The position numbers were made by a program, and so were the translations under genes. A stretch of 64,000 nt of DNA from a virus: positions 96,001 through 160,000 of the IMG/VR virus record IMGVR_UViG_3300045988_179268. The stretch is one strand, 5' to 3'. Under the pieces are notes generated by a model. That model saw nothing but the letters and a program-made list of their open reading frames with translations. It was not told where the DNA came from and searched no databases. Of this stretch, positions 13,101 to 49,032 are shown piece after piece. Position 1 is the first letter of the stretch. Every line of letters begins with the position of its first letter.

Positions 13101-13662
13101 TAAGCTTACAAAGCGCATGTACTGTCAGAGGTGTAAGTCCGAAGGTCTTATCCCAAATAGTGAGCTACTTGTTCCTATTAAGAATAAGGCTGACGAGGAG
13201 AAAGCTAAGAAACGCATGAAGCCAACTAACGATACGTACCTCACAATGGCACTGGCACAGCCAGAACTGCAACGTGAAAACGTGAAGAGTGACGCTGACG
13301 CTTTCAAAGCTTACAAGACTTTGACTACAGCGGCGGCGGACAGTATGGCAAGGCATCACCGAAGCGCCCTCGATGAACGTCAAAAGAGCGTTATTGTGTA
13401 CGAGTTGCCCGAAGCATTAAAGCCATACTTCAACGTAGACGCATACAACATCGCCCGCGATAACGACGACTTCGAAAAGATGCGCCGCCATTGGGGACTA
13501 GCAATCCACAAATACATCCAGGAAGAACTCGGATACAAAATTAACCGAACCCCGGAAGAAACACTAAACGACATTGTTCGCACAAGTGACGGCTATAGTC
13601 CGTGGTGGATGCTAGACCCAAACGCTAAACGAAATGACGAAGGCAACCAGACGGATGAGTAA
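10183..13662 (+). CDS. giant membrane protein with M23 (LytM-type) peptidoglycan endopeptidase domain and C-terminal CxxC..CxxC zinc-ribbon-like motif
   Basis: M23 signatures HKGIDF (from 11884) and GHAYGCHLHFEV (~12124). Signal/TM segments flank the domain. CSNC...CQRC lies at 13048-13134. Confidence 0.85.
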   Translation: MRAHTTITAESAVTPPNTNPKGVRGVWRTLLALLTATLLAFSLYPAFSVSSANTQPAHALDVNKWVMCDAFGKDSLPARLYQYSQSNDLQFMAFSKSAAASGRSNPDSGANMLLKVVGVDIEKNNQQLVIGGTDATNGAGFNKGNKLNFFDRFGLGGYQFTAYTGEWNYLRIDACAAKPEAKDPKANHYYETRLDPTATWDRASSSLDPRTQIYATGQGARYASAAGTYIGNILLGATTWVLGFFLALLVLSFKDIAKLMGLTDILVGNNPDVLGGILRPLQENFLFPFASIIVLGGLLFLVKGIIQNDGAREKWKRFGIALFTGIFAVSFIALSPKLLPLPNRAAAWVQSITIKATTQELTSMGEWCSTEVGSKKSTYKAEQEGKRDAFETVTDEVAQVVSENYSEIVASQLSCTFTKLFVFDPWAQGQFGTNPNHLWAEGKEIPEWAKDGKTLGNHNSKWVGDAGVPMGAETYLHNWAIYQLSTQTTSHLQTGNETAGRSREAQGVSTDWWRVVDALSNYDEKDVELKVPQARDLPSNVSNGEWARPAEAAMTSPYGNRPELGDVHKGIDFGAQCGAPIYSAGNGKVVFAQKASDGANGIIIQHDGVSTMYWHMQDGSLQVKVGDEVKAGQQIASSGDTGHAYGCHLHFEVRPGTDWGNQDNVTDPQAWLKERNIDVTKEKDGLSPHAAAVSTGNSSSAVEITRGAQDMDSKPLAAWNTWVGSSSGARVGVGLSALIVAIIALAVPSILALMTAILSVLIQLYILVVPFAALALMTSTKRGIAFAKKYGKMALYLYFARIGLGLLLTLSVVFVLWGYSIMATVGFWQGVVVIALLSLALWLMKNRILAFAETYAGGLVRKPMEALDNIGLGFKRLTGIGTASVVSGVTAKRAGGSFLQAASIAAADKKRDIANESKFGRLTLRASNKANEFAPSRLLKPQGHTPTVDDAELLVCSNCKRTYKHGEMNMFMDKLTKRMYCQRCKSEGLIPNSELLVPIKNKADEEKAKKRMKPTNDTYLTMALAQPELQRENVKSDADAFKAYKTLTTAAADSMARHHRSALDERQKSVIVYELPEALKPYFNVDAYNIARDNDDFEKMRRHWGLAIHKYIQEELGYKINRTPEETLNDIVRTSDGYSPWWMLDPNAKRNDEGNQTDE

Positions 13663-13747
13663 AAACATCCCCAAATCGGTTCGACCATAAAGTAACCAAC
13701 CGGCTAAACTAAATAAGTAACATAAATTTCTACAGGAAGAGGCACCC

Positions 13748-14314
13748 TTGAGGTCATTTGCCGCACCGCTAACCGTCGTTACTGGCAACACTACCGCACC
13801 AGCAACGTTGAGGACTACCCCTAACGGGCAAAAAGTCCTTAACGTGACGGTTGCAACAACTCCACAGCGCCGCGACCAGCAGACTGGAACCTGGCACGAC
13901 AGGGGTACGTCCCAGTTCTACACTGCTACCTTCTGGAATGATGATGCAGAGGCAGTAGCGCAGACTCTAACCCATAAGGGCATCTCCGTTGTGCTTATGG
14001 GCGACTTGGTGGAAACCGAAGTTGAATCCAAGAAGAACCCTGGCACTATGGTGCGTACCAAGAACATCGAGAACCCGCTTATTGCGCCATTGTCTAATAA
14101 GCGTCAAGCAGTAGTTGTAACCCCTCTCGAATATCAAGGCGGCGGCGCACCGGGACAGTACAGCCAGCAGGCACAGCCTGCGTACCAGAACCAGGGCGCA
14201 CCCGCTCAGGGGCAGAATTACAATAACGGCTGGAACGCTAATCAGCAGGCACAGCCTAGCTACGGTGAGCAGTGGAGCAACACGCCCGCTGGCGAAGATG
14301 CACCTCCCTTCTAA
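13748..14314 (+). CDS. ssb: single-stranded DNA-binding protein
   Basis: OB-fold-like N-terminus (LTVVTGNTTAPATLRTTPNGQKVLNVTVA..W..F), a G/Q/N/P-rich linker and an acidic tip EDAPPF. TTG start follows GGAAGAGG. Confidence 0.9.
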   Translation: MRSFAAPLTVVTGNTTAPATLRTTPNGQKVLNVTVATTPQRRDQQTGTWHDRGTSQFYTATFWNDDAEAVAQTLTHKGISVVLMGDLVETEVESKKNPGTMVRTKNIENPLIAPLSNKRQAVVVTPLEYQGGGAPGQYSQQAQPAYQNQGAPAQGQNYNNGWNANQQAQPSYGEQWSNTPAGEDAPPF

Positions 14315-35625: not shown

Positions 35626-37191
35626 ATGCCTGCCGGACTGTCACTATCAGCGCTCAAACAGAACAACCACAACCCTGCCAGCCGTGAAAAAGACGAAGAA
35701 AACCGACTAAAAAACCTCAGCGCAAGCATCACCCAATACGCAGAAGACCAGCTTCCACCACCGGCACCTGAGCCTGACGTAGCGGAAGCTGAGCCGCCCG
35801 TGCCTGCCATTGACCAAGAAGCGTTAATGGCAGAAATTCTGCGTCAAGTACGAGAAGAACACAATAAAGCATCTGTCCCGCAAACGGCAGTCGTCACCAG
35901 TGACGACCTTGCCGCCGCATCAAAAGAAAAATACGGCTCCGTGGAACCAGCAGGGGAGTACAGCGCCCTCCGTAAATCCACACCCACCAGCCTCATAGAA
36001 CCCGACAACTTCCCGCTCAGTAGCATCATCACAGACGCATACGACATGGGAGCAAGCGACGTTTACATCCAACCCGAAACACCTATTCGATTCAAGGTGG
36101 GTGGCGGCTTAGCGCCCTACTACCAGCAACCTACACCTACCCGCAACGATGTTTCACGTCTACTTGAAAAAGTTACTCAGACTACCTCTTCTACAACGTT
36201 CCGCGCTGAAAAAGAACTAGACATTTCCTACACCATCCCTAAAGGAAAATACGCTGGCAGAAGGTGCCGTCTTAACGTAACATACGTTTCACCGGGTCTG
36301 TCGAACATCAATATGGTGTTCCGACTACTCGCTACCGACATTCAAGACCCATCCTACTACAACGTACCCAAAGCTTTCATTGATGCACTTCATCAAAAAG
36401 CAGGGCTTATCGTAGTCGCAGGCGTTACAGGTAGCGGTAAAACAACCACCATCGCATCAGGTCTATACTACGCGCAATGCAACGTCACAACACCACACCC
36501 CGTCACCGGCGAACCAATGGGCGTAACTATCGTCACCATCGAACAGCCAATCGAGTACCTATTCGACAACAACAACCCCAACTCAAACGGTAGCCTATTC
36601 ATCCAGCGAGAAGTGAACACCGACACACGCTCATTCCTCAACGGCATCAAATCAGCGCTACGCCAAAACCCGAACATTATGCTTATCGGTGAGGTGCGTA
36701 ACGAGCTGGAAATCCAAGCCGCGTTACGCGCCGCTGAAACAGGTCACCTTACCCTAACCACCGTCCACGCACAGGACTGTGCAGGCATCATTGAACGCTT
36801 AGCGACCAATGATGACGGTACGCTACGCGCAAATTCATTAGCTTCCATCGCATCTAGCGGGCGCGTATTCATGACGCAGGCACTAGTCAAGCGCATGGAT
36901 GGCGGGCTAATTCCTGCACATGAAGTCTTAGAGATTAGGCAATCGGACAGAGTGCTTATTGAAGACATCAAAACAGGCAATATTTCCGACATTCGCCAAC
37001 GCCTACAAGATGAAGGCGAAGACATGTGCTCCACTCTTATGAATTTGTGCCGTGCTGAAACGGGTCCCTGTTACGTTAAGGATGCGCTAGAACACGCGCC
37101 TGACCCGCACAGGTTCCTCACCCTTATCCGCACAGCCGAGGCAAACGGCGAACAGTTCAACTACCACCCAGACGAACTAAAAAACATTTAG
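35626..37191 (+). CDS. PilT/PilB/GspE-family secretion ATPase (type II/IV secretion NTPase)
   Basis: ASDVYIQPETPIRFKVGG, Walker A AGVTGSGKTTT, LIGEVRNELE and AAETGHLTLTTVHA. Confidence 0.85.
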   Translation: MPAGLSLSALKQNNHNPASREKDEENRLKNLSASITQYAEDQLPPPAPEPDVAEAEPPVPAIDQEALMAEILRQVREEHNKASVPQTAVVTSDDLAAASKEKYGSVEPAGEYSALRKSTPTSLIEPDNFPLSSIITDAYDMGASDVYIQPETPIRFKVGGGLAPYYQQPTPTRNDVSRLLEKVTQTTSSTTFRAEKELDISYTIPKGKYAGRRCRLNVTYVSPGLSNINMVFRLLATDIQDPSYYNVPKAFIDALHQKAGLIVVAGVTGSGKTTTIASGLYYAQCNVTTPHPVTGEPMGVTIVTIEQPIEYLFDNNNPNSNGSLFIQREVNTDTRSFLNGIKSALRQNPNIMLIGEVRNELEIQAALRAAETGHLTLTTVHAQDCAGIIERLATNDDGTLRANSLASIASSGRVFMTQALVKRMDGGLIPAHEVLEIRQSDRVLIEDIKTGNISDIRQRLQDEGEDMCSTLMNLCRAETGPCYVKDALEHAPDPHRFLTLIRTAEANGEQFNYHPDELKNI

Positions 37192-37399
37192 TTAGCATTA
37201 AAAAGTGCTAAAATGTTCCGCAAAAAGTTTGGAAAATCAGACCTGGAAATACGTCCCACAAGCGGCGTAAACTCTAGGCGCTTGATATATAACTACACAG
37301 ATAAATAAAAACCTCTCCAGCACCCCATACGCGGGCACATAGGGCAAGGAAGTCGAGCGCCAAGCCCTATAAAATCAGAGAGACTAACGGAAACAAAAT

Positions 37400-37447
37400 G
37401 GTAAGCCCCTAACCTTTTATTATGAAGGTTAGGGGCTTACCATTTTT
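37400..37447. terminator. bidirectional rho-independent terminator; left edge of the skewed module
   Basis: 15-bp stem ggtaagcccctaacc / ggttaggggcttacc. Flanked by aaacaaaa (U-tract for the minus strand) and attttt. Confidence 0.8.
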
Positions 37448-37458
37448 AGTCCCAAAAA

Positions 37459-39102
37459 CTAAAACTCAAAAGCTGAAACGCCATCAAAAACAGACCCATC
37501 AGGGCGACACAAACGAATAGCGCGGATACGGTCATCACAACCATTCGCCAACGCCCACTCATTCACCTTACGCATCATACGGTCACCAGTACACAACCAC
37601 AATACCTGACCAAACACGCTCCTATCATCCTTATACTGCCCCAAAATAGTCTCCAAACGACCAGGCTTCTTACCGAAGCCACGCTCAATCTCAACAGCAA
37701 CACTGCGAGGCTCCCCATCCTCGCCACGCGGAACCATGCACACAATATCCGGCACATGGTACTTCGTCTCAGACGCACCACTCATTACCGCCCACATCCA
37801 CTCATTACCGCCGTAACACTCAGGAGAAACCCCAACACCACCAGCCGCACGCCAACTACGCAACACCTCACCACGGCGCGCAATCAAAACATCGCGCACG
37901 TCAAACCCAGCACGACCCCTAAACATTCCATGAATAGCGCCATTAATCACACGGTCAGGAATCACACTGAAACCACGAGCAACCTGCCCACCAACAACAC
38001 GACCACCAGATACTAAACCACCCAACCCCAAAACATCAACCGCACCATTCACCAACATCGCCCCCACATAATGAATAAGAGTACGATGCTGAAACTCGCT
38101 ATTACCCAGCGTCTTACGCGACACAGTAGCCCCACCAACACCAAACTCATCCAAACCCACACGTGTACCAACCCATACCGTATGACGCAAACCAGGAATG
38201 TCCACCGCCTCCAAACAGCCACGCCCCTGCAACCCCTTCAAATACTTCAACGCCGTAACCCTAGTAGAAACCCCCAACAACAACATCACAGCACGCACAT
38301 CAACCCAGCCAAACAGCCCAACAAACCCCATAATCTCAACCTCACGGCGCGAACCCATCAAACGCGGCGCAACACCACCATCCCCCTTGGAAGCCCTACG
38401 CACACGCTTCAAGCGCTCAGCCACAACATCCGGCGACTCACCAACCAACGGCGGAGACACAACATCAACCTCCCCAACACGAGACAGCCAATAAGAAGCC
38501 TGCTCCAACGCCAAACCATTAGAAACCTCAGTAGAACTCATACGCGAACCTCTCCCATCGTAATCAAAACGAAAACATGACAACTCACCAACACCAGCAC
38601 CTAGCCCCAAACCTCCCGGCGGCGCAACCAACCCACCTAACTCAACACCAACAGCATCACCTAAAGCCTCAACCCCCACACCAGACGCAGGAACAACAAA
38701 CCCATCCTGAATCGCCTCAAAATCAACACCATTCACGCCACCAAAAGACCACCTAGCGCGCGGAGTAACACCAAAAGAAAACCCGCCATGCACAAAAACA
38801 CCACCAACCGTAGAAACAACAGACCCATCCCAAACATACCCAGCACACTCCGCCGCAAAAGACCTAAACGCAACAGGAACCTGCGAAAAATCACGCACAC
38901 CCCGCGCACGCTCCAACACAGACCCATCCTCAACCGCAACACCAGACCCCAACACAAAACCATTCACCAAATGCCCAACACTGAACCCCGCATCACCCAA
39001 CTCACGAATAGACCCAGACCCAGAAAAAACATCCGGCGCTAAACCCTCAACAACCTTACGACCAACATTAACAACAGCCGAAGAAACAGACCCATCAACC
39101 AT
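37459..39102 (-). CDS. Replic_Relax (plasmid replication-relaxation)-like protein with G/V-rich N-terminal extension
   Basis: Start moved to ATG 39102 (GGAGG 7 nt upstream). wHTH-like VRAVMLLLGVSTRVTALKYLKGLQGRGCLEAV, HRTLIHYVGAML, and a PD-(D/E)xK-like VPDIVCMV...AVEIERGFGKK..LGQY. Confidence 0.55.
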   Translation of the reverse strand: MVDGSVSSAVVNVGRKVVEGLAPDVFSGSGSIRELGDAGFSVGHLVNGFVLGSGVAVEDGSVLERARGVRDFSQVPVAFRSFAAECAGYVWDGSVVSTVGGVFVHGGFSFGVTPRARWSFGGVNGVDFEAIQDGFVVPASGVGVEALGDAVGVELGGLVAPPGGLGLGAGVGELSCFRFDYDGRGSRMSSTEVSNGLALEQASYWLSRVGEVDVVSPPLVGESPDVVAERLKRVRRASKGDGGVAPRLMGSRREVEIMGFVGLFGWVDVRAVMLLLGVSTRVTALKYLKGLQGRGCLEAVDIPGLRHTVWVGTRVGLDEFGVGGATVSRKTLGNSEFQHRTLIHYVGAMLVNGAVDVLGLGGLVSGGRVVGGQVARGFSVIPDRVINGAIHGMFRGRAGFDVRDVLIARRGEVLRSWRAAGGVGVSPECYGGNEWMWAVMSGASETKYHVPDIVCMVPRGEDGEPRSVAVEIERGFGKKPGRLETILGQYKDDRSVFGQVLWLCTGDRMMRKVNEWALANGCDDRIRAIRLCRPDGSVFDGVSAFEF

Positions 39103-39165
39103 CAGGAAACCTCCAAAACTTATAAAGAAACTCGCAATCCACATAGCCGAAAACCCACGGCAATG

Positions 39166-39176
39166 TGTGATACAAT
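39166..39176 (+). promoter_or_regulatory. extended -10 promoter (tgTGaTACAAT) for the lipoprotein cassette
   Basis: tgtgatacaat matches the element-wide consensus. It interlocks back-to-back with the minus-strand -10. Confidence 0.45.
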
Positions 39177-39183
39177 CATACCA
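39175..39183 (-). promoter_or_regulatory. extended -10 promoter (TGgTATGAT) for 37459..39102
   Basis: The minus strand reads ttggTATGAT. ~70-nt leader to ATG 39102. Confidence 0.45.
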
Positions 39184-39216
39184 ACCAAACCCCCACCACA
39201 TCAAAGGAAAATCCCC

Positions 39217-39429
39217 ATGAAGAAGCTGTACAACATCGCAGGACTCACCTTAATCGCCACGCTTACCCTCACCGGATGCGGCAATAGTGAGAACACCCAA
39301 AAACCAGATACCACCAAGACATCCCAATCCGAAACAGACAGCCCACGCCGCGTAGTGAAACCCTGCGGGGCAGACACCACCGGCGACATTGAAATGGGTC
39401 AGGGACTCTGCGACCACGAAGAAAGGTAA
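39217..39429 (+). CDS. small lipoprotein
   Basis: MKKLYNIAGLTLIATLTLTGCGNSEN has a signal peptide plus the lipobox LTGC. RBS AAGGAAA. The tracked start 39163 would overlap the promoters. Confidence 0.6.
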   Translation: MKKLYNIAGLTLIATLTLTGCGNSENTQKPDTTKTSQSETDSPRRVVKPCGADTTGDIEMGQGLCDHEER

Positions 39430-39441
39430 CGAACAAACACT

Positions 39442-39720
39442 ATGGAATCATTCATCTACGGAGTTGTTAAAGTAACTCTCGAATACCACACGTACCCCAA
39501 TAACCCGGAAAAGAACCATATTGAAACCCGTGCATGGTACCTAGACGATAATAACAACAAAATTAAAACTGTCAGCACTAGTGACAACCCCCAAATGGAA
39601 GTAGTTCACGCCCTCTCAGAACACAACAAGCCAGTATACCAGAACGGTTTAGTGGGTGAGATGCTAGTCATTAATACAAATGACTACTCAATCTTCGAAA
39701 CCAAATACATTACCCACTAA
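39442..39720 (+). CDS. hypothetical protein (ordinary, AT-leaning composition)
   Basis: 92-aa ORF followed directly by a strong terminator. Confidence 0.55.
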   Translation: MESFIYGVVKVTLEYHTYPNNPEKNHIETRAWYLDDNNNKIKTVSTSDNPQMEVVHALSEHNKPVYQNGLVGEMLVINTNDYSIFETKYITH

Positions 39721-39726
39721 CAAAAA

Positions 39727-39773
39727 AGTATCCCTTAAACTCTCTACAGAGAAGAGTTTAAGGGATACTTTTT
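39727..39773 (+). terminator. rho-independent terminator
   Basis: 17-bp stem agtatcccttaaactct / agagtttaagggatact, then ttttt. Confidence 0.8.
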
Positions 39774-39787
39774 GCCCTATATTTTAA

Positions 39788-40588
39788 CTAACGCCAAGAC
39801 TCCGCGTGGTTCAAATCGCCTTCACAATACGCATAAACAACATCAAACATCTCAGGATACTGCTTAATAAACTCCGCCGGACTCATGCCAGCATACGCCA
39901 AACTAGGACCACCAATCAAAAGCGCCGTCTGAGTCGAACTAAAAGCATCGGAAGACCCATACACCCCCAAAAGCTTCACAATATCCTCCCTCACAGAACC
40001 GCCCTCAAACTGGAAACCAGGGTACCCCATGACACCCACCCACGCCGGATGCTTCGAAAAATCGGACAAAGGGAACCTAAGCACACGATTACTCTTAACC
40101 ATCTCCTCCAACTCACCCGAAGTCACACCCAAATACTCACAGACAGCACGCTCCGTATAGACACCCTGCAAATCTTCACCAAACACCGACTCCACGGCAG
40201 TAAGACCCCTTGAACCCTTGGCGACGGCAGTGTCAATCCCCTCACAAATGTAAGAAGTAAGCTTCTCCCCGTCACCCTCAGCGACATCAAGATACCCCGC
40301 CTCGCACAAGTCATCAACAGCCTTGCAAAGCATCTCCTTAACCCCCTCAACAGTTAGCGGGAACTTGCCTCTACCACCATAAGCAGAATAATAAGGCTGA
40401 GAACCCTCACGTTCACGAAGCATAAACAGCCCAACAGCCGCACAACAATGAAACAGCAAAACACGTTGAAGAGACTCAGTAATCACAACATCACCAGAGC
40501 CAACCTTCACATCAACATACTCACAAACCTCCTGCTTCACACCAGCAAGAACCTCAGCCTGCGCACTAGAAATAACACGAGAAGACAT
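39788..40588 (-). CDS. hypothetical protein, HTH-like plus C-terminal 'FQF...SP' module (family 2)
   Basis: 266 aa. ERAVCEYLGVTSGELEEMVKSNRVL, GYPGFQFEGG and LIGGPSLAYAGMSPAEFI. Confidence 0.55.
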   Translation of the reverse strand: MSSRVISSAQAEVLAGVKQEVCEYVDVKVGSGDVVITESLQRVLLFHCCAAVGLFMLREREGSQPYYSAYGGRGKFPLTVEGVKEMLCKAVDDLCEAGYLDVAEGDGEKLTSYICEGIDTAVAKGSRGLTAVESVFGEDLQGVYTERAVCEYLGVTSGELEEMVKSNRVLRFPLSDFSKHPAWVGVMGYPGFQFEGGSVREDIVKLLGVYGSSDAFSSTQTALLIGGPSLAYAGMSPAEFIKQYPEMFDVVYAYCEGDLNHAESWR

Positions 40589-40629
40589 TAAGCAACCCCC
40601 ACAATAGAAAGAAAAATAAGTGCAAAACT

Positions 40630-40638
40630 ATGATACCA
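40630..40638 (-). promoter_or_regulatory. extended -10 promoter (TGgTATCAT) for 39788..40588
   Basis: The minus strand reads tttggtatcat ~40 nt upstream of ATG 40588. Confidence 0.45.
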
Positions 40639-40713
40639 AACAAGGCAACACAAACACTAAAAACTGGGAGGGGTGAAACAAAAAACTTCACCCCTCCCAG
40701 CACCTACAAACGG

Positions 40714-41910
40714 CTACCCGCAATACCGCACAACCGCAAGAACCGCATCCACATACTCATCACCAAGACGCGCATACTCAACAGGCGCAACCAACCCAAA
40801 CCACGGCGACGGACTCTCCAAAAACTCAACAATACGGTCATCACCCCAACCCCAATCACGCAACTCACCCACAAGACGCACAGACCCAGAGAAAAACACC
40901 CAATCAATCACTAACCCATCATCCCCATAAACAGGCATCAGATGCACACCCTCAACAATATAATCGCCATCCCCATACTTCCCCGCCAGCAACTCGCCAG
41001 ACTCACACATACCCGCCACTACATCCTCAGGAACCCCCAACCCCTTAGCTACCTTGTGGGGTGGCAAACCAGCCCAACGGACACCATTAGAACGCTCATC
41101 AATACTAGCGAAACGGTGAACCAAAACACCCCACGGGACACGCAAAACCTCAGCCAAAGCCCCCAAATCAGCCAAAGAACCGCCACCCACAGACGGAACA
41201 ACACCTGCCACCGTCAAAGCAACAACATTCCCCGGCACTGGAACATTACCCACACCAGCACGCCCCCACGCACGCCCAACAACCTCAGCGCGCCGCCCCA
41301 ACGCACATTCACGCGCATCATCCAACACAAGAGCAACCAGAGCCTCATCACCCGACATCAACAACTCAGCCGCCGACAAAAACCCATACTCAAACGACGG
41401 CGTGAACAAAAAATCATCAGTAATATGAGGCTTCACACCAACAGCCCTGAACATCTTCACACACTCAAAAAACTCAGGGTTAAACCTCAAAGCGCCCTCA
41501 CCAGACACACTCCAAACTCCCTTACCGGCACCACCCCAAAACTGGGCACGAGTAAACAGCAAAGCACCCTCCCAGATGCCACCATTAAGGTAACCCTCCT
41601 CATACAGGCGCATCACCTCAGTGCCCGGCAACCCCTTATCCTCCAGCTCAGCCAAAGACAACCCGTCACCCCACTCACAATAAATACCCCACCCGGCAGA
41701 ACCGCCTCCAAACGCTTCCTCCAAACGCTCATACATGAACTCAGTAGAGACACCAAGAACACTAGAAACTAGCTCAAAATGCTCATTCTCCCAATCATAA
41801 GTAGACTTGGGAAGCCCTAAAGAACGAACCCTCAACACATCCTCAGCAGAGAAAAACTTGAAGCCAGGGTACTCATCAAAAACATTGTGCAACATGGAAG
41901 TAGCCTCCAA
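40714..41910 (-). CDS. hypothetical protein (family 2, duplicated module)
   Basis: 398 aa. GGAGG RBS before ATG 41910. G/V/W-rich. C-terminus FLESPSPWFGLVAPVEYARLG. Confidence 0.55.
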   Translation of the reverse strand: MEATSMLHNVFDEYPGFKFFSAEDVLRVRSLGLPKSTYDWENEHFELVSSVLGVSTEFMYERLEEAFGGGSAGWGIYCEWGDGLSLAELEDKGLPGTEVMRLYEEGYLNGGIWEGALLFTRAQFWGGAGKGVWSVSGEGALRFNPEFFECVKMFRAVGVKPHITDDFLFTPSFEYGFLSAAELLMSGDEALVALVLDDARECALGRRAEVVGRAWGRAGVGNVPVPGNVVALTVAGVVPSVGGGSLADLGALAEVLRVPWGVLVHRFASIDERSNGVRWAGLPPHKVAKGLGVPEDVVAGMCESGELLAGKYGDGDYIVEGVHLMPVYGDDGLVIDWVFFSGSVRLVGELRDWGWGDDRIVEFLESPSPWFGLVAPVEYARLGDEYVDAVLAVVRYCG

Positions 41911-42054
41911 AAGAAAAACAAAAATACTTGCACTCCCTATAATACCCCCCCCCTCAAAAAATCAAGAAAACACGCCGGTAAACATCTCTAGATACAATAC
42001 ATCCCACGCATAGAAGAGAATTAGAACACCCCTAAAGAGCATCCATCGCAAATA

Positions 42055-42065
42055 TGTGGTACAAT
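42055..42065 (+). promoter_or_regulatory. extended -10 promoter (tgTGgTACAAT) for 42179..43000
   Basis: Exact match to the island consensus. The ~110-nt leader contains the perfect hairpin ggttgagg-tgag-cctcaacc (42077-42096). Confidence 0.5.
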
Positions 42066-42178
42066 CTAAACATGAAAGGTTGAGGTGAGCCTCAACCCAC
42101 CACCCCACCCTAACCATACAGGGAACCCAAAAAAGGGGCGAACACCCAATCATTAAACACAGAAAGAGAGCATCAACA

Positions 42179-43000
42179 ATGCGAAACATCACCCCCTTCC
42201 TCTACTGGGAAACCCTCAACACCAACGACGGTATCCTCCTCATCCCCACCGACAACACCACCAACGACCGCATGGCAATCTACACCATCGACCAGGTAAC
42301 CAACACCGACCACGCCACCGCACGCCTGCGCCACGCAAGCTTCAACGCACCCAAGACCATCACCCTCACCCGCACCAACGGACAGCTCACCACCAACGAC
42401 CTACCAGACCTCAAAGCCGTAAACATCGGCACCCGAGGCGACGCTATCGAACCCACCTACTACGCCGTCGAAAACGACGACAACATCACCATCTGGTACA
42501 GCACCGAACACTACAACGACATCGCCATCGCACACACCCTCAAAGCCAACGGAGAAACCCGCGTAATCTTCCACGAACCCGACGAATACGATACCCCCGA
42601 AGGCGGGTACAACATCTGGACAGTCCTCCAAGCAACCGAAAACTACGAAGACACCGACACCCTCCCCGAAACCTTCAACATCCCAGAAGCCAACACCGCA
42701 CCTCTCACCCCCGAAACCGCACTAGCACTCCACGACACCCTCAACCACCCCGAATACCACACCCTCAACGACAAAGAAACCCTCGAAGAAGAACTAATCT
42801 CCCTCTGGCAAAACATCTCAGACTACTACGCAATCCCTGGCGAAATGCACTGGGTATCCGACACTGAAATCCTCTGGCGCGCCAAAGACTACCTCACCAC
42901 CGTACACGACATCGCAATCAAAGAAGGACGCGCCAACCTAGCCAACCAAACCCTCCACCACATCAACACCATCACCACCCACACCAACTACGAAGAATAA
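42179..43000 (+). CDS. hypothetical T/N/D/H/E-rich protein (A+C-rich coding strand)
   Basis: 273-aa ORF with diverse, protein-like sequence (..ILWRAKDYLTTVHDIAIKEGRANL..). It has its own promoter. Only one short mirror ORF lies antisense. Confidence 0.55.
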   Translation: MRNITPFLYWETLNTNDGILLIPTDNTTNDRMAIYTIDQVTNTDHATARLRHASFNAPKTITLTRTNGQLTTNDLPDLKAVNIGTRGDAIEPTYYAVENDDNITIWYSTEHYNDIAIAHTLKANGETRVIFHEPDEYDTPEGGYNIWTVLQATENYEDTDTLPETFNIPEANTAPLTPETALALHDTLNHPEYHTLNDKETLEEELISLWQNISDYYAIPGEMHWVSDTEILWRAKDYLTTVHDIAIKEGRANLANQTLHHINTITTHTNYEE

Positions 43001-43021
43001 CCCCCAAAACACCAAAAGATA

Positions 43022-43057
43022 CCCCTGGCAACCCGCACAAACACGGGAAACCAGGGG
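43022..43057 (-). terminator. hairpin terminator, U-tract only on the minus strand
   Basis: cccctgg / ccagggg with inner cccg / cggg. The minus strand continues tatcttttggtgtttt. Lies 27 nt after the stop of minus ORF 43084..45360. Confidence 0.55.
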
Positions 43058-43083
43058 CATCTTCCTATACCACCAACAACACA

Positions 43084-45360
43084 CTAACCACCCAAAACCG
43101 ACACAACCTCACCCACCGAAACACCCAACCCCAACACCGGCGAACCAACCGGCACATCAACCCAACCACCAGAAACACCCCAACCAGAACGACCAAACAA
43201 CCCAGCAGACCCACCACCACCAGAAACAACCCCCACCGGCGAACCAAACCCCTCACTACCAGCCACAAACCCCAAACCCAACCCACCATCCAAACCACCA
43301 CGCCCAGAAACAACCGAACCAACAACACCAGACAAAACACGCCCACCAACAGACCCCAAAACACCATCCAAACCACCACGCAACAACCCCCACAAAACAC
43401 CAGAACCCAAACCCGCAACCCTACCAAACACCGGACAAACCCCCGACAACCCCAAACCACCACCAACACCAGACACCACATCAACCAACCCCACCACAGA
43501 CGAAACACCCCTCAAACCACCAACCAAAGAACCCACCGGCGACCCACCAGGCAAAACACCACCACCAAACACACCCGACAAACCCCCAACACCCCACAAA
43601 CCAGACACACCATCAACCACACCACCACAAGAACCAGCAACCCCCACCGACAAAACACCACCACCAAACACCGACCCAAACCCCACAGGAACAAGCCCCG
43701 CCCCAAACACAAGAGAACGCCACAACCACCCATCAACATCAACCACAGCCCCAACACCCCCATCAACAAAACCACCATCAACATCAAAACCCTCAACAGC
43801 ACCAACAACACCAGACACACCCGGCACAAAACCACCAGCCCCAACACCCCAAACACCAACCCTACGCCCAAAACCAGCCCCAACACCACCACCACCCAAA
43901 ACACCCAAACCAGCAGACGACAAACCCCAAGAACAAGACAACCCGCCAACACCAGAAACACCCCCACCAACCGGCAACCCAAAAACCCCAACAACACCCG
44001 ACAAATCAACACCAAACCCCGAAACAGAACCCAAACCAGCCAACGCATCCAACCCAGACACCCCCGACACCAACCACGGCACAGCAACCCCAACACCACC
44101 AGAAACCCCACCAACATCCGCCGCACCAGCACCCACACCACCAAACCCAGCAGAGCCAACCCCACCAAAATCAACCCCACCGACAAAATCACCAACGGGC
44201 AAACCAATCGGCAAACCGCACACCCCAGACCCCATAAACAACCCCACTGGCGAACAACCCAACATGCCCAATAACCCATCAACCCCACCAGCCACAGAAC
44301 CACCAAACCCAGACGAAGAACCAAACCTCACGCCAGAACCACCCACAACACCAAACAAACCCGAACCTCTAGAAGCCCCCACAGACCTATTAAAACTAGT
44401 AGAAGGTAAAACAGTACCGCCAATAGACAAAACACCCTCAGAAGCCCCCTCAAGCCCCGTAGAAACCCCCTCTATAGTAACCCCATCAGTAGCAGGCTCA
44501 GAAAACTCCTCGCCACCACCCCAAAAACCCTCAACAAAACCGCCACCAACACCAACCCCCACAAAACCCCCAACACCATCCACAACACCAGACGAGCCCC
44601 ACCCCACCGACACACCAACCCCCACAGGCTCAACAAAACCGGCACCACGAAGCGAACCACCCCAAACACCAACCCGCCCATCAACCCCCAACAACCCAAC
44701 AACACCAGAATCAACGCCCCACAACTCAACACCAACCCCACCCGGAACAAACACCCCACACACACCACCAGACAACCCATCCCCCAACAACCCAGAACCC
44801 AAACCACCAACACCAACACCAGACTCCAAAACACCACGCCCAACAACCACAACAACCACACTCCAAAAAAGAAAAAACAAAAAAATAGTACACCACAAAC
44901 ATAGCCACAAAAACACCCCCACCCAGACAACCCCCAAAAAACAAAACCCCCAACACCCACCCAACAAACAAAAACCCCACAAAAACACCCCCACAACAAA
45001 AAAAACCAAACCAACCACCCCAAGCAAACCCCAAAAAACAACGCACCACAAACCCAAAACCACACAAAGAACTTGGGCAACACTAAAAATAAACACCAAA
45101 AACACGAATAACCAAGACACAAGACACAAGAGAAAAGGAAAAAGCAACAAGACATAACAGACACAGACACGCAAAGAGGAAAGCAATAACACTACAAAGA
45201 AAGAAGTACCCAGGATAAACAGATACACAAAATAAACACCAATACACGACAGACATAGAGGATAAGCGCAGACACATACACCATAAACAGAAAGAAGCAC
45301 AGGCACACAATACGCAAGCACAGAAAAACACGAAGGCAACAACAGATACAAGAGACACAC
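43084..45360 (-). CDS. candidate G/V/S-rich low-complexity protein (start uncertain; coding strand unresolved)
   Basis: 758-codon stop-free frame, with a minus-strand terminator just downstream. Composition resembles the G/V-rich N-terminus of 37459..39102. The N-terminal C/W/F-rich 170 aa look unnatural. Confidence 0.3.
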   Translation of the reverse strand: MCLLYLLLPSCFSVLAYCVPVLLSVYGVCVCAYPLCLSCIGVYFVYLFILGTSFFVVLLLSSLRVCVCYVLLLFPFLLCLVSWLFVFLVFIFSVAQVLCVVLGLWCVVFWGLLGVVGLVFFVVGVFLWGFCLLGGCWGFCFLGVVWVGVFLWLCLWCTIFLFFLFWSVVVVVVGRGVLESGVGVGGLGSGLLGDGLSGGVCGVFVPGGVGVELWGVDSGVVGLLGVDGRVGVWGGSLRGAGFVEPVGVGVSVGWGSSGVVDGVGGFVGVGVGGGFVEGFWGGGEEFSEPATDGVTIEGVSTGLEGASEGVLSIGGTVLPSTSFNRSVGASRGSGLFGVVGGSGVRFGSSSGFGGSVAGGVDGLLGMLGCSPVGLFMGSGVCGLPIGLPVGDFVGGVDFGGVGSAGFGGVGAGAADVGGVSGGVGVAVPWLVSGVSGLDALAGLGSVSGFGVDLSGVVGVFGLPVGGGVSGVGGLSCSWGLSSAGLGVLGGGGVGAGFGRRVGVWGVGAGGFVPGVSGVVGAVEGFDVDGGFVDGGVGAVVDVDGWLWRSLVFGAGLVPVGFGSVFGGGVLSVGVAGSCGGVVDGVSGLWGVGGLSGVFGGGVLPGGSPVGSLVGGLRGVSSVVGLVDVVSGVGGGLGLSGVCPVFGRVAGLGSGVLWGLLRGGLDGVLGSVGGRVLSGVVGSVVSGRGGLDGGLGLGFVAGSEGFGSPVGVVSGGGGSAGLFGRSGWGVSGGWVDVPVGSPVLGLGVSVGEVVSVLGG
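44264..45157 (+). CDS. alternative reading: P/T/K/N-rich disordered protein (frame open from 43088)
   Basis: By hand translation the plus frame is stop-free over 43088-45157, but there is no ATG/GTG/TTG before 44264 and no RBS. Shares wobble positions with the minus ORF. Confidence 0.2.
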   Translation: MPNNPSTPPATEPPNPDEEPNLTPEPPTTPNKPEPLEAPTDLLKLVEGKTVPPIDKTPSEAPSSPVETPSIVTPSVAGSENSSPPPQKPSTKPPPTPTPTKPPTPSTTPDEPHPTDTPTPTGSTKPAPRSEPPQTPTRPSTPNNPTTPESTPHNSTPTPPGTNTPHTPPDNPSPNNPEPKPPTPTPDSKTPRPTTTTTTLQKRKNKKIVHHKHSHKNTPTQTTPKKQNPQHPPNKQKPHKNTPTTKKTKPTTPSKPQKTTHHKPKTTQRTWATLKINTKNTNNQDTRHKRKGKSNKT

Positions 45361-45709
45361 AAAAGAAGATAAGAGGCAACACAGTACGTATACACAAGAA
45401 AGGCAAAAGAAGCATAAAGAGAGGACATAAGAGCGGAAGGCACATATATGCTAGAAACACATAGGGATACACGCAGACTAAGTAATACACGACAGGTATA
45501 GAGAGGGTAGGTAGATAGGGTAAGCACGCATAGGATGGCACACGGTATATACGGAGGGGCTAGAAACGGTTAGTGGGTGTGAGTGGTGGTAGGTTGGGCA
45601 GGGTGGAAGGTGGTGTGGTGGTTGGGTGTGGTGTGGGTCATATTGCTCACGCGGTTGGTTGCTCTTTCCCTTTTTTCTTTCTCCTTTTCTTGTGTTTTTG
45701 GTAGCGTGC

Positions 45710-45772
45710 TGTGGCGCGGGGTATTTTTGGGTGTTTCGGTATGTGGGGGAATGTATCATTTGCCCTAGTCAG
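45710..45772 (+). repeat. 63-bp direct repeat, copy 1
   Basis: tgtggcgcggggtatttttgggtgtttcggtatgtgggggaatgtatcatttgccctagtcag is identical to 45955-46017. Confidence 0.9.
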
Positions 45773-45811
45773 GACGTTTTTGCGTTTTGGGTGACAGGGC
45801 TGTAGTAGTGG

Positions 45812-45843
45812 CTTAAAATCAACCTGTAGAAGTTGATTTTAAG
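45812..45843 (+). terminator. hairpin 40 nt after repeat copy 1
   Basis: cttaaaatcaac / gttgattttaag, then gtgtttt. Confidence 0.4.
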
Positions 45844-45954
45844 GTGTTTTATATAGATTTTTGAGGTGAATTGGGTTGTCTGCGTCTTTGGCGCAGGGGT
45901 TTTGGTGGTAATTATGACGTTTTTTAGGTTTTTTGGGTGGGTTTTTGTGTGCAT

Positions 45955-46017
45955 TGTGGCGCGGGGTATTTTTGGGTGTTTCGGTATGTGGGGGAATGTA
46001 TCATTTGCCCTAGTCAG
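45955..46017 (+). repeat. 63-bp direct repeat, copy 2
   Basis: Identical to 45710-45772. The two tracked ORFs read the repeat in different frames, so it is probably non-coding. Confidence 0.9.
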
Positions 46018-46058
46018 CGCGTTATGCACTTTGGTACAGATTCTCATTTTCAGGGGTT

Positions 46059-46086
46059 AAAAATCAACCTCCAGGGGTTGATTTTT
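46059..46086 (+). terminator. hairpin 42 nt after repeat copy 2 (same stem core as 45812-45843)
   Basis: aaaaatcaacc / ggttgattttt. Confidence 0.4.
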
Positions 46087-46220
46087 GGTAAGCGCATGGT
46101 GCGAGCGCGATTTTAAGCCTTGGTGCCGGGGTGTCGAAGGATGGTTTTTATTGCTTTGCGGGTGCCAGGTGTGGTAGGTTGCGCCATTGTGTATCACAAG
46201 CTTGCGTGTCGTCTATTTTC

Positions 46221-46231
46221 TGTGGTATAGT
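46221..46231 (+). promoter_or_regulatory. extended -10 promoter (tgTGgTATAGT)
   Basis: tgtggtatagt lies 77 nt before ATG 46308. The leader has hairpin ggcgggtaa-tcg-ttacctgcc. Confidence 0.5.
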
Positions 46232-46307
46232 TATAGGGTAATCATATGGCGGGTAATCGTTACCTGCCGTTATTCTTCATCTTGTTCCTATGGAGGGATT
46301 GTTAGTT

Positions 46308-46661
46308 ATGGCTTTTAGTGTTGAGATTCAGGTTAGGGCTAAGAACACTTATGCCCGGTTGGTGTGTTCTTTGTCTGAGATTGGTGCGCTGTTCTCTACG
46401 GGCAGTTTTGTGAAGGCGGCGGTTTTGAATTTGGCGATGTTTGATGCGAGCGCTTCGTCTGCTAATCCTAGTGTGTGGGATGGGGTGGATGAGAAAGAGC
46501 GTCGCTTGCAGTGGTCGTACAATGAGTTGCGTAACCTTGCGTCTTCTTTTGCCCCCGATTGGGCTGAGGCTGTTGCTAAGGATGATGAGGCGCTGGCTTT
46601 GGAGATTTTGAACGCTGTGGATGATGTGGTTTCTTATGCGCGTGAGCGTGTATTTGGTTAG
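46308..46661 (+). CDS. hypothetical protein
   Basis: ATG 46308 after GGAGGG is preferred over the tracked start 46290. 117 aa. Confidence 0.55.
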   Translation: MAFSVEIQVRAKNTYARLVCSLSEIGALFSTGSFVKAAVLNLAMFDASASSANPSVWDGVDEKERRLQWSYNELRNLASSFAPDWAEAVAKDDEALALEILNAVDDVVSYARERVFG

Positions 46662-46675
46662 CACTGTCTTGTGTT

Positions 46676-46732
46676 AGCGAAGGGGCGGGTTCCTGTTTGG
46701 GTTCCCGCCTCGCTTCTCTACTTTTGGTTTTC
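46676..46732 (+). terminator. hairpin plus T-rich tail
   Basis: agcga..ggcggg / cccgcc..tcgct, then tctctacttttggtttt. Confidence 0.6.
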
Positions 46733-46830
46733 TGCTTGGGTGAGTGTGTGCTTGCTTGGGTGGCATGTTTTGTTTTTGTGGGTGGGTGTTCTGCCTGCTT
46801 CATTGAGTTTATTGAAAGGGAGTTTTGTTG

Positions 46831-47916
46831 ATGTCTGTTTTTCCTGGTGATGTTGTGTCTACTGTTGTGGGTGTTCTGCATGTGCAGACTATTGTTATGG
46901 AGCGTTCGCGTGAGGATGTGTCTTTCGCGGTGTCTGGTGTTGATGGTGGGGGTGTGGTTCACTCGAACATTCCTATTGGTGAGGGTGTGGTTCCGTTGGC
47001 TGTTGATGTGCCTGAGTCTGAGGCGTTGGTGTGGTTTGACCGTGAGCGTCGCTTGAAGCGTTTGGGGGATGCTGTGTTTAGTCCTGGTGATGGTGTTAGG
47101 GCTTTGGGTAAGCTGATGGAGGGGCAGGGTGTTGAATTGTCGTTGTCTGACTGTGAACCTGCTGAGGCTGTTGTTAGGTGGCTGGGTGAGGTTGAGGCTT
47201 CTCTGGTTGGGGCGAGGGCGTGGGTTACAGGGAAGCGTATGGAGTGCCTGCGTGCGTTTGAGGATTTTCATGCGGGCTGGTTGAAGTATCATAGTCGCCC
47301 TTGGGGTGAGCCGTCTTTGGGTGAGCGTTGTGATGTGCGACCTGGTATTGGGTTTAGGTCTGGTGGTGTGTATCGGTTCCGACGTGAGGGTGCGCCTATT
47401 GAGGATGGGTATGAGTATTTCAAGGTTGTTCGTACTGTCGGTCAGCCTGAGATTGTTATTTATGGTGCGTCTACTGAGGTAAGTGAGTGTCTGGGTTTTA
47501 TTCATGGTGTTAAGTATGGTCCTAACTATGATTATCTTCTCCTGCTGGCTGAGGTTGGCGGTAAGAAGATTTCGATGCTGGCGGATACTGTGAAGCTTCT
47601 GCCTATTGGTTCTTTTGAGGATATTGAGTCTTACCTTGAGTTGAGTGAGTATGAGGACGTTTCTCTTCCTGGCGCATTGCGCAACATTTTCCTTGACCTG
47701 TTTGCCGCTGGTGACGGTAAGCCTAAGTGCCTGCCCTCCCGTGAAGAGCTTAACGGTGGCTACTACGGTTGGGGTGATGACTACGGTAAGCGTTGTGGTG
47801 AGTTGATGGAGGCAAGTGCTGACATTCTGTTCGATATTGAGAAGAGTATCGGGTATGTCCGGTGGTTGCGTGAACAGCTGGTAGGCTTCTATCGTGAGCT
47901 AGGGTTCACTATCTAG
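46831..47916 (+). CDS. family-1 paralog (V/G-rich, G+T-recoded copy)
   Basis: Aligns with 52996..54063 and 60347..61120 (VSGV, WFD, ARAWV..KR.ECL, VYRF, GKPKCLPS, FDIEKSIGYVRW). RBS GAAAGGG. Confidence 0.65.
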   Translation: MSVFPGDVVSTVVGVLHVQTIVMERSREDVSFAVSGVDGGGVVHSNIPIGEGVVPLAVDVPESEALVWFDRERRLKRLGDAVFSPGDGVRALGKLMEGQGVELSLSDCEPAEAVVRWLGEVEASLVGARAWVTGKRMECLRAFEDFHAGWLKYHSRPWGEPSLGERCDVRPGIGFRSGGVYRFRREGAPIEDGYEYFKVVRTVGQPEIVIYGASTEVSECLGFIHGVKYGPNYDYLLLLAEVGGKKISMLADTVKLLPIGSFEDIESYLELSEYEDVSLPGALRNIFLDLFAAGDGKPKCLPSREELNGGYYGWGDDYGKRCGELMEASADILFDIEKSIGYVRWLREQLVGFYRELGFTI

Positions 47917-48161
47917 GGGGGTCGCCGCCTAGGGAGGGGTGGCGTATGGGAGCCGCTGAATCCTCCGGCTACTAGGTTTGGGTGACCGCTCTTGTAGTTG
48001 ATGGCGAGCGCTCTCTTGGGCGGCTATGTCTTAGTGGTGGTTGTTTGCTGGTTGCTTCGCTAAGTGTGGTGATGGGTGTGAGTGCTTGAAGGGTGCTCAT
48101 GCCCATCATTTGTTTCTGCTGGGGTGAGCCACACACTATAGCTTGCGCCCCCGTCTGAATC

Positions 48162-48172
48162 TGTGGTATAAT
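48162..48172 (+). promoter_or_regulatory. extended -10 promoter (tgTGgTATAAT)
   Basis: tgtggtataat lies 70 nt before ATG 48242 (RBS GAGGAG). Confidence 0.55.
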
Positions 48173-48241
48173 TAAATTGTTCAATCGGGGGTGTTTCCCG
48201 TAAAGCCAATGACCAATACGCATGTTTGAGGAGTCACACAA

Positions 48242-48640
48242 ATGTCCTGCGCTGTTAAGATGATGAAGCCCTACACTTACACCACCCTTCCCTTTACCGC
48301 TACCAGCACTGCCCACATGGGCGATGTTGAGTCATGGGTTTCTTCTAAGATGACTCTTGAGTTCGTATCCTGGGATTCAGGTGAGGAGGCTCACGTTACT
48401 TATGGGGTGCAGGCGACTAACCCGGCTAAAGAGCCTGGCGATGACGGCTGGTTGATTGGTCGTGTGACTATGAGTGTTGATGTTGAGGGTGAGGTTGCTC
48501 TGAGTGATGCTCTTATGCGTCGTATGGTGGAAGACTTTAAGGTTGTGATGCGTAATCGTGTAGCGCAGGGTCAGGCTCTTGTGGACTTTGAGGGTGGGGT
48601 TCCGGTCTTTAAGCAGACTGTGACGTTCGCTACCGTGTAG
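48242..48640 (+). CDS. small acidic hypothetical protein
   Basis: 132-aa ORF with promoter, RBS and a downstream hairpin (aaagccg..cggcttt). Confidence 0.6.
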   Translation: MSCAVKMMKPYTYTTLPFTATSTAHMGDVESWVSSKMTLEFVSWDSGEEAHVTYGVQATNPAKEPGDDGWLIGRVTMSVDVEGEVALSDALMRRMVEDFKVVMRNRVAQGQALVDFEGGVPVFKQTVTFATV

Positions 48641-48775
48641 TAGGTGGCATGTGTTAGCTTTAAGCCGTGGGGTGGCTTCCTGTACAGGGGTTGCTTTGCG
48701 GCTTTATTTATGTTTCCTGTGACTTATATGTGGTTGTGGTGTTTCCACCTCGTAGGTTGCCTCAATGTTTCACTG

Positions 48776-48786
48776 TGTGAGATAAT
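48776..48786 (+). promoter_or_regulatory. extended -10 promoter (tgTGaGATAAT)
   Basis: tgtgagataat. The transcript would begin at the RBS-loop hairpin 48793-48812. Confidence 0.45.
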
Positions 48787-48855
48787 GGGTATGAGTACTT
48801 AGGAGGGTGCTCATGTTAATTATTTATTTTCTTGTGAAAGGAAGGTGTGCCTGTT

Positions 48856-49032
48856 ATGGGTGTTGTGAAGGGTGGTCGCTCTTTGGTTCGTGAGTCTGGT
48901 GTGGTTCGTTGGGATGATGGTTCGCGCCTGTTTGGTGAACGGTTTGCGAGCGCCAACTATAAGGTCACTATCGGGCGCGTTAATGTTGGTACTGCTGAGG
49001 TTGGCATTGGGTCGTCTGAGGGGCGGAGGTAA
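48856..49032 (+). CDS. small hypothetical protein (58 aa)
   Basis: ATG after GAAAGGAAGG. Its stop lies next to the GGAGG of the following small gene. A micro-ORF (48813-48893) overlaps it in another frame. Confidence 0.4.
   Translation: MGVVKGGRSLVRESGVVRWDDGSRLFGERFASANYKVTIGRVNVGTAEVGIGSSEGRR

Follow-up and report, generated by a model that had tools for sequence, protein, structure and literature searches.

A Gly/Val-rich minus-strand gene and its mirror open reading frame in a strongly strand-asymmetric domain of a giant extrachromosomal element

Antisense shadow open reading frames (ORFs) are long stop-free frames that lie in a fixed phase opposite a real gene and result from the codon composition of that gene. 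The bacterial leading strand and the vertebrate mitochondrial heavy strand are enriched in G+T and depleted of A+C. Strand asymmetry of prokaryotic and mitochondrial genomes is ascribed in one review to the mechanism of replication (PMC3269012). Likenesses to both are found in a 64,000-nucleotide stretch of DNA (the window), positions 96,001 to 160,000 of the IMG/VR virus record IMGVR_UViG_3300045988_179268, which is part of a large mobile element. At 43060-45560 of the window the plus strand is 85% A+C and long frames are open on both strands, a Gly/Val-rich frame on the minus strand and a Pro/Thr-rich frame on the plus strand. An original prediction made from the letters alone regarded the strand as undecidable, with either or both possibly translated, whereas the comparative data presented here decide in favour of the minus strand alone. 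The tract very probably consists of a single minus-strand gene (43084-44850) preceded by a non-coding upstream region of about 0.7 kb, a reading drawn from the comparison of related sequences.

Like the described shadow ORFs, the plus-strand frame has no ribosome-binding site, no constraint of its own and no conserved start. Unlike them, it lies in the phase that shares third-codon positions with the gene and at about 690 codons it is of gene length, which follows from the complete absence of Tyr, His and Gln from the minus-strand protein. It is therefore more extreme than the usual shadow ORFs of high-GC genomes. The strand asymmetry of the window likewise resembles that of bacteria and mitochondria, with G+T enriched and A+C depleted on one strand, a sign that flips at a defined point and genes of both orientations affected. 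However, while the skew of bacterial replichores is uniform and weak, that of the window is strong and local, and beyond the skew itself no signature of a replication origin was found in the window (a DnaA-box scan was negative).

The strand that is read

Within 43088-45157 the plus strand has a base content of A.43, C.46, G.08 and T.03 (A+C 89%). Both strands are free of stop codons, as had been predicted, the plus frame across 43088-45154 (689 codons) and the minus frame across 43087-45450 (788 codons), with the listed minus ORF at 43084-45360 being GTG-started and 758 aa long. The prediction that the two frames share their third-codon positions, with Pro standing opposite Gly and Thr opposite Val, was equally correct, and the reported distribution of T in 43088-43800, 13 of 16 residues in one codon phase and none in another, was reproduced exactly (13/3/0; for G 39/14/0). 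Counted over the whole tract, T (37/24/8) and G (109/39/19) remain phased, but the triplet periodicity claimed for all 2.4 kb is confined to part of it. A strong association between base and codon phase is seen in 43088-44850 (chi-square, chi2 = 252, p = 2e-51) and is absent from 44852-45451 (chi2 = 3.0, p = 0.8), where the phasing is lost, and the periodic, coding segment is therefore 1.77 kb rather than 2.4 kb long. Openness by itself says less, since all three plus frames are open in 43088-44234, where much of the stop-freeness simply reflects the scarcity of T; likewise, outside the minus gene T makes up only 3-10% of the bases, which accounts for the multi-frame openness found there.

Relatives of the tract were located via an anchor gene at 42179-43000 on the plus strand, which encodes a 273-aa protein of unassigned function and is convergent with the minus gene. 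This search returned two IMG/VR contigs of 307 and 361 kb and 20 metagenomic loci on contigs of up to 360 kb, with anchor homologues 72-96% identical in 22 loci. A tract of similar composition directly follows the anchor in sixteen relatives, while four loci (L008-L011) carry the anchor gene (74-77% identity) but not the two-letter tract, having past position 6820 a balanced composition and other plus-strand ORFs. Frames were compared in 16 tract-bearing sequences, the window included, one of which (L007) holds only part of the tract.

The minus frame is intact in 15 of these 16 sequences, being open over at least 643 codons in 14 of the 15 with a full tract and open also in the partial L007. 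The exception is L019 (BNJU01003487.1, 6900-9400), in which several frameshifts split the homologous gene across three minus frames while leaving its protein blocks recognisable; homopolymer sequencing errors in the A/C runs are suspected here rather than a pseudogene. The plus mirror frame is interrupted by an in-frame TAA in 12 of the 16 and stays open in four, namely the window, L003, L005 and L006. In a three-way DNA alignment of the window, L001 and L002, all of the approximately 15 indels inside 43088-44870 are multiples of three, one of them as a compensating 2+1 pair 12 nt apart. From 44917 onwards the indels between the window and L001/L002 break the frame (1, 1, 2, 4, 4... nt), and the K/N/H-rich tail of the plus frame (44870-45157) sits in this non-periodic region of frame-breaking indels.

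Two frames that share third-codon positions can be separated by the degeneracy class of those positions. Whether a change at a third position is silent depends, in the plus reading, on the two bases before it in its own plus codon and, in the minus reading, on the two bases that open the next plus codon. Among 13 distinct sequences, third positions silent in both readings were variable in 47 of 124 cases (0.38) and those non-synonymous only in the plus reading in 28 of 59 (0.47), while only 4 of 40 (0.10) of those non-synonymous in the minus reading alone varied, as did 2 of the 15 non-synonymous in both. The difference between the plus-only and minus-only classes is significant (Fisher p = 7e-5), with a pairwise version of the test giving p = 0.007 and 0.003. 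In keeping with this, the ratio of non-synonymous to synonymous substitution (dN/dS) is 0.34-0.56 for the minus frame against 0.40-0.78 for the mirror frame, the minus frame being lowest in all five pairs, and exceeds 1 in the remaining plus frames.

A search of 5.8 billion proteins recovered 53 relatives of the minus-strand protein. One of these, P0005, is 40% identical over 97% of the query, and a further group of homologues of about 525 aa begins MTTRLVDADTPN. Both P0005/P0054 and the MTTRLVDADTPN group contain Lys, Asn, Gln, His, Tyr and Thr and align along the entire minus protein, sharing with the window translation the blocks WGLSSA-LGVL, GGFVPGV, GLGLGFV-GSEG-GSP and GG-VD-P-GSP--GLG, and the reverse complements of these less biased homologues cannot encode a P/T-rich protein. 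The real triplet constraint originally suggested is thus borne out by periodicity, indels and dN/dS, and the comparison of homologues for synonymous bias and frame-preserving indels that had been proposed alongside it singles out the minus frame alone. On these comparative grounds the strand that is read, the boundaries of the gene, the purifying selection upon it and the origin of the mirror ORF can be taken as demonstrated.

The P/T/K/N-rich frame at 43088-45154 on the plus strand does not appear to be a gene, and is best read as an arithmetic by-product of the minus gene that would not be translated. In the mirror frame a TAA or TAG requires that the next minus codon start with TA (Tyr), and a TGA that it start with CA (His or Gln). 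All three residues are missing from the window protein, whose mirror frame is stop-free for that reason, while relatives with Tyr (e.g. ...GGAVYGG...) carry a plus-frame TAA. The plus ORF had been tracked from 44264, and although an ATG is indeed present there, the only start-like codon in the mirror frame, it is found in the window alone, being ACC in L003 (96% identical), L005, L006, L001, L016 and L022, and it is not preceded by any visible ribosome-binding site. The Pro/Thr-rich translation, whose natural appearance had been offered as evidence for the plus strand, is of a kind that any A/C-only sequence yields, since codons made only of A and C specify just Pro, Thr, Lys, Asn, Gln and His.

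Antisense dual coding, in which the minus strand would yield a G/V-rich protein and the plus strand a disordered P/T-rich one, at least in the clade of the window, has to be considered since the plus frame is open over 605-689 codons in the window, L003, L005 and L006, with the in-frame ATG at 44264 in the window and a translation resembling natural disordered proteins. It is nonetheless highly improbable, as the openness is automatic for a minus protein without Tyr, His and Gln, the mirror-frame TAA codons extend to L007 of the same clade, the start codon is missing even from the 96%-identical L003 and lacks a ribosome-binding site, and third positions at which a change would alter only the plus protein vary as much as silent positions do (28/59 against 47/124). 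Dual coding in the clade of the window is unsupported.

Boundaries, signals and product of the minus gene

The coding sequence (43084-44850, minus strand) specifies 588 aa from a GTG start at 44848-44850 to a TAG stop at 43084-43086, and its coding strand is 88% G+T. The ATG starts of homologues align with this GTG, and a Shine-Dalgarno-like GGAG (44861-44864, minus strand; CTCC on the plus strand) lies 10 nt upstream of it. The sequence tTGGAGtGTG GTT (GTT/TTG) GTG is the same in 15 of 15 sequences examined, and a related lineage has GGAAGGA-N12-ATG at the aligned position. At the other end, between the convergent genes, an intrinsic-terminator hairpin with a U-rich tail (43003-43069) belongs to the minus transcript. 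The hairpin after the minus stop, part of the original case for this strand, proved real (-37.6 kcal/mol, z = -5.8), with a consensus structure kept in 10 loci in which three pairs have changed on both sides. Two U-G pairs are also kept (one in 10/10 loci and one in 9/10) that become C-A mismatches in plus-sense RNA, and the U-rich tail past the hairpin exists on the minus strand only.

Upstream of the gene, 44851-45560 is A/C-rich and then A/G-rich and non-coding, with no periodicity (p = 0.2-0.8) and, across the tract-bearing relatives, no protein-level conservation upstream of the residues WSVV. Database gene calls of 745-767 aa nevertheless run into it. The Cys/Trp/Phe-rich minus N-terminus that had seemed unnatural is indeed odd, but it falls outside the real gene, in this non-coding DNA (44851-45360). 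A sigma-70 promoter scan gave hits no better than those in shuffled sequence and none suitably placed for the minus gene, and the leader and switch region had no Rfam match.

The product is an acidic, low-complexity orphan protein composed of G 34%, V 21%, S 11%, L 9%, F 5%, D+E 5.8% and R 2.6%, with no K, Q, H or Y. When 1.84 billion clustered representatives were searched with a profile, just 8 proteins were recovered, all within the family of the minus protein, suggesting a small orphan family apparently confined to the uncultivated 260-410 kb elements described below. Many Trp, Asp, Glu, Arg, Pro and Phe positions are invariant across this family of about 40% identity, which together with a dN/dS of 0.34-0.56 shows real, if relaxed, selection on the protein.

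Very high glycine and low complexity are shared with the PE_PGRS proteins of mycobacteria, but neither the window protein nor 24 homologues has a PE domain or Pfam match, the partner of Gly here is Val/Ser rather than Ala/Asn, and there are conserved Trp/Asp/Glu/Arg/Pro positions. The name PE_PGRS given by JGI to the homologue P0028 was rejected as a composition artefact, as both the PE domain and the Gly-Gly-Ala/Gly-Gly-Asn repeats are lacking. Elastin-like Gly/Val-rich proteins are similar in that G+V amounts to 55% and motifs such as FVPGV and VPGGVGV occur; in contrast to them the window protein has no regular repeat unit and the family has many invariant columns at 40% identity, which would favour a defined structure or defined interactions over a purely entropic polymer. 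The best guess, held with low confidence, is that the protein has a structural or scaffold role in the element and is either flexible or rich in beta structure. The kinship in composition originally noted with a neighbouring G/V-rich minus gene is valid and fits the gene at 37459-39204 on the minus strand. That gene encodes 581 aa, of which the N-terminal half is G/V/S-rich and the C-terminal half ordinary in composition, and has no family match.

Several observations weigh against reading the tract as a minus-strand gene. One clade (window, L003, L005 and L006) has a fully open plus frame. No Pfam family was found in the window protein or 24 homologues, PHROG had no family for the minus protein and neither Pfam nor PHROG for the reading of either strand, and there is no sequence relative of the minus protein among solved structures in the Protein Data Bank (PDB). 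AlphaFold models of the window protein and of its least biased homologue, P0005, reached a predicted local distance difference test (pLDDT) score of only 39 and 37 and gave no confident fold, the window protein being predicted as mostly non-regular, in which it again resembles elastin-like proteins.

The absence of a fold, the openness of 43088-44234 in all three plus frames and the truly non-coding character of the adjoining 44851-45560, which is still open in several frames, might suggest that the whole tract is non-coding low-complexity DNA, for instance a spacer flanking an origin, whose open frames are by-products of a two-letter composition. For 43084-44850 this is contradicted by the triplet periodicity (p = 2e-51), by approximately 15 of 15 indels preserving the frame, by the dN/dS of the minus frame, by a constraint that depends on degeneracy class, by the conservation of start, ribosome-binding site and terminator and by the existence of homologues of ordinary composition; as an account of the tract it is scarcely credible, but it holds for 44851-45560. 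That the plus strand alone is translated into a P/T-rich protein, possibly by stop-codon readthrough from 42179-43000, with which the mirror frame of the window is in phase across just two TAA codons (42998 and 43085), can practically be dismissed, since in L001 the mirror frame and the anchor gene are in different phases, so that the shared phase is coincidental and readthrough is ruled out, extra TAA stops break the frame in most relatives, a conserved terminator hairpin stands between the two genes, and the substitution pattern and less biased homologues fit the minus frame alone.

Strand asymmetry around 45.5 kb

The composition of the minus gene is part of a wider pattern. GC and AT skew change sign at approximately 45.5 kb, where the cumulative skew has its minimum, and weaken past about 8 kb on each side. 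In 37000-49000 the GC skew runs from -0.30 to -0.71 on the left and from +0.26 to +0.37 on the right, with AT skew of opposite sign; over 2 kb the values reach -0.71 for GC and +0.89 for AT, compared with approximately 0.43 and 0.45 in the neighbouring 8 kb or so and 0.1 farther away. On both sides the excess of G+T is on the strand running away from the switch, and A and C are both depleted on one strand while overall GC content is unchanged (the window is approximately 49% GC).

Third-codon positions follow the region. They are 85-91% G/T in the minus-strand genes at 37459-39204, 39788-40588 and 40714-41910 and in the plus-strand genes at 46290-46661 and 46825-47916, and 97% G/T in the tract gene, while the oppositely oriented anchor gene at 42179-43000 has 93% A/C. 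The DnaB gene at 17.5 kb is balanced, and those at 1-36 kb nearly so. In the tract gene, G and T together make up 99% of four-fold sites on the outward strand (G.36, T.63, A.003, C.009), and G/T differences account for 100 of its 126 variable sites. Similar regional skew is seen in two related lineages (L023 and L024). The base bias is thus regional, a domain of about 12 kb around the switch, and not peculiar to the tract gene, and as the anchor gene carries the bias of the region and not of its own strand, this argues against a purely gene-by-gene transcriptional effect. Two further mirror ORFs rich in T/R/N/Q/P/H lie in the skewed domain, one of 276 aa at 40942-41772 on the plus strand opposite the real gene 40714-41910 and one of 309 aa at 46576-47505 on the minus strand opposite 46825-47916.

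The skew profile and a duplicated 245-nt module mark the non-coding switch region at 45560-46289 as a candidate origin and/or divergent promoter. The module contains 69-nt repeats at 45710-45778 and 45955-46023 that are 97% identical, each followed by the palindrome AAAATCAACC-N6-GGTTGATTTT (45815-45840 and 46060-46085), and L001 carries the same duplicated module at approximately 13540-13900. Family scans recognised no initiator gene among the window proteins.

Deamination of C (to U/T) and of A (to hypoxanthine, which is read as G) depletes both bases on an exposed strand, and the G+T richness of leading strands and of the mitochondrial heavy strand is generally attributed to it. The most likely cause of the strand bias is deamination of this kind on a strand left single-stranded at 45.5 kb. 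Exposure there during replication initiation or divergent transcription would bring about C->T and A->G changes, and a G/T-rich outward strand on both sides could be produced either by a replication bubble with delayed lagging-strand priming or by strong divergent transcription. The strand leading outward from the switch in the 5'->3' direction would in this way be driven almost wholly to G and T at synonymous sites, with a mutation-tolerant Gly/Val-rich protein allowing replacement sites to follow towards GGK, GTK, TTK and TGK codons.

Some features fit poorly with replication initiation and deamination at this site. There is no cluster of DnaA boxes marking 45.5 kb as an origin, and the ORFs of at least 200 aa in 1-37200 are all on the plus strand and point toward the switch, which is unusual for an origin; with an origin at 45.5 kb they would be head-on to replication. 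In addition, selection, for example against palindromes or secondary structure, could yield the same composition.

Selection on the DNA or RNA itself, rather than mutation, might indeed maintain the two-letter composition through a need for few palindromes, few Type II sites or little structure in single-stranded DNA, such that a strand of A and C only could shield, or give an advantage to, a region that comes first in replication, transfer or expression. The frequency of palindromic 6-mers, 6.6-8.0 per kb elsewhere in the window, drops to 4.1-4.3 per kb in the skewed flanks and to 1.7 per kb in the tract, genes of both orientations are equally affected by the bias, and the element encodes conjugation-like ATPases. 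This explanation is rather unlikely. The loss of palindromes is an arithmetic consequence of the skew, so that cause and effect are inseparable, and a change of sign at 45.5 kb together with decay over distance is what single-strand exposure around an initiation site predicts.

The element family and what the locus means

The window encodes an SbcC-like ATPase, DnaB helicase, a RecG-like helicase, a 1159-aa M23 peptidase protein, a VirB4/TraG-like AAA_10 ATPase and ParA/TadZ-like and T2SSE ATPases, while most other genes in it have no family match in Pfam or PHROG and no tRNA genes were found in its 64 kb. Phage and plasmid collections gave no DNA or protein match to the window, GTDB species genomes held nothing similar to the element, and a scan of viral contigs with a 398-aa neighbour as the query found no match. 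Identical copies of window proteins occur on contigs of 319-412 kb in JGI, ENA, Logan and NCBI data, and variants of DnaB and T2SSE from the element family on more than 100 contigs of up to 412 kb, one locus with a homologue (L026) coming from a Human Microbiome Project sample. The family is one of uncultivated 260-410 kb extrachromosomal elements in human-associated metagenomes. Database copies of the anchor protein (P0066, P0071 and P0073) are 304-306 aa long against 273 aa in the window, possibly through alternative start calls or extensions.

Inocles are giant extrachromosomal elements of approximately 350 kb from oral streptococci with 24-32% GC (PMC12340149). The elements described here resemble them in being uncultivated and circular, a few hundred kb in size, derived from human-associated metagenomes, long overlooked and filled mostly with gene calls lacking a function. 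Identity with Inocles was ruled out on GC content, that of the window being far above the range reported for Inocles (PMC12340149), and the marker InoC formed no part of this comparison.

The puzzle of the two strands has an ordinary answer, a minus-strand gene with an automatic mirror ORF and not a new coding arrangement. For annotation this matters since gene callers take the right strand but add 150-180 spurious Cys/Trp/Phe-rich residues, and a plausible-looking Pro/Thr-rich antisense frame could easily mislead a naive annotation. The degeneracy-class test, which separates two frames sharing third positions, is reusable. The unusual part is how strong and how local the strand asymmetry is, together with the mark it has left on a protein under selection. 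The locus exposes an extraordinary asymmetry, with third positions 85-99% G/T, in a widespread and undescribed family of giant elements, and shows how far strand bias can push the amino-acid make-up of a selected protein. If the bias marks prolonged single-strandedness, then it would locate an initiation site and hint at an unusual mode of replication or transcription. It is tentatively proposed that a near-two-letter domain of about 12 kb, arising through very long single-strand exposure or through selection for DNA free of palindromes and structure, may remodel the proteins resident in it, one tolerant orphan protein having lost every Lys, Gln, His and Tyr and nearly all Asn, Ile, Met and Thr. 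If true, the domain would rank with the strongest local asymmetries between strands reported for any prokaryotic replicon, and the protein would be a natural case of evolution on a reduced codon alphabet.

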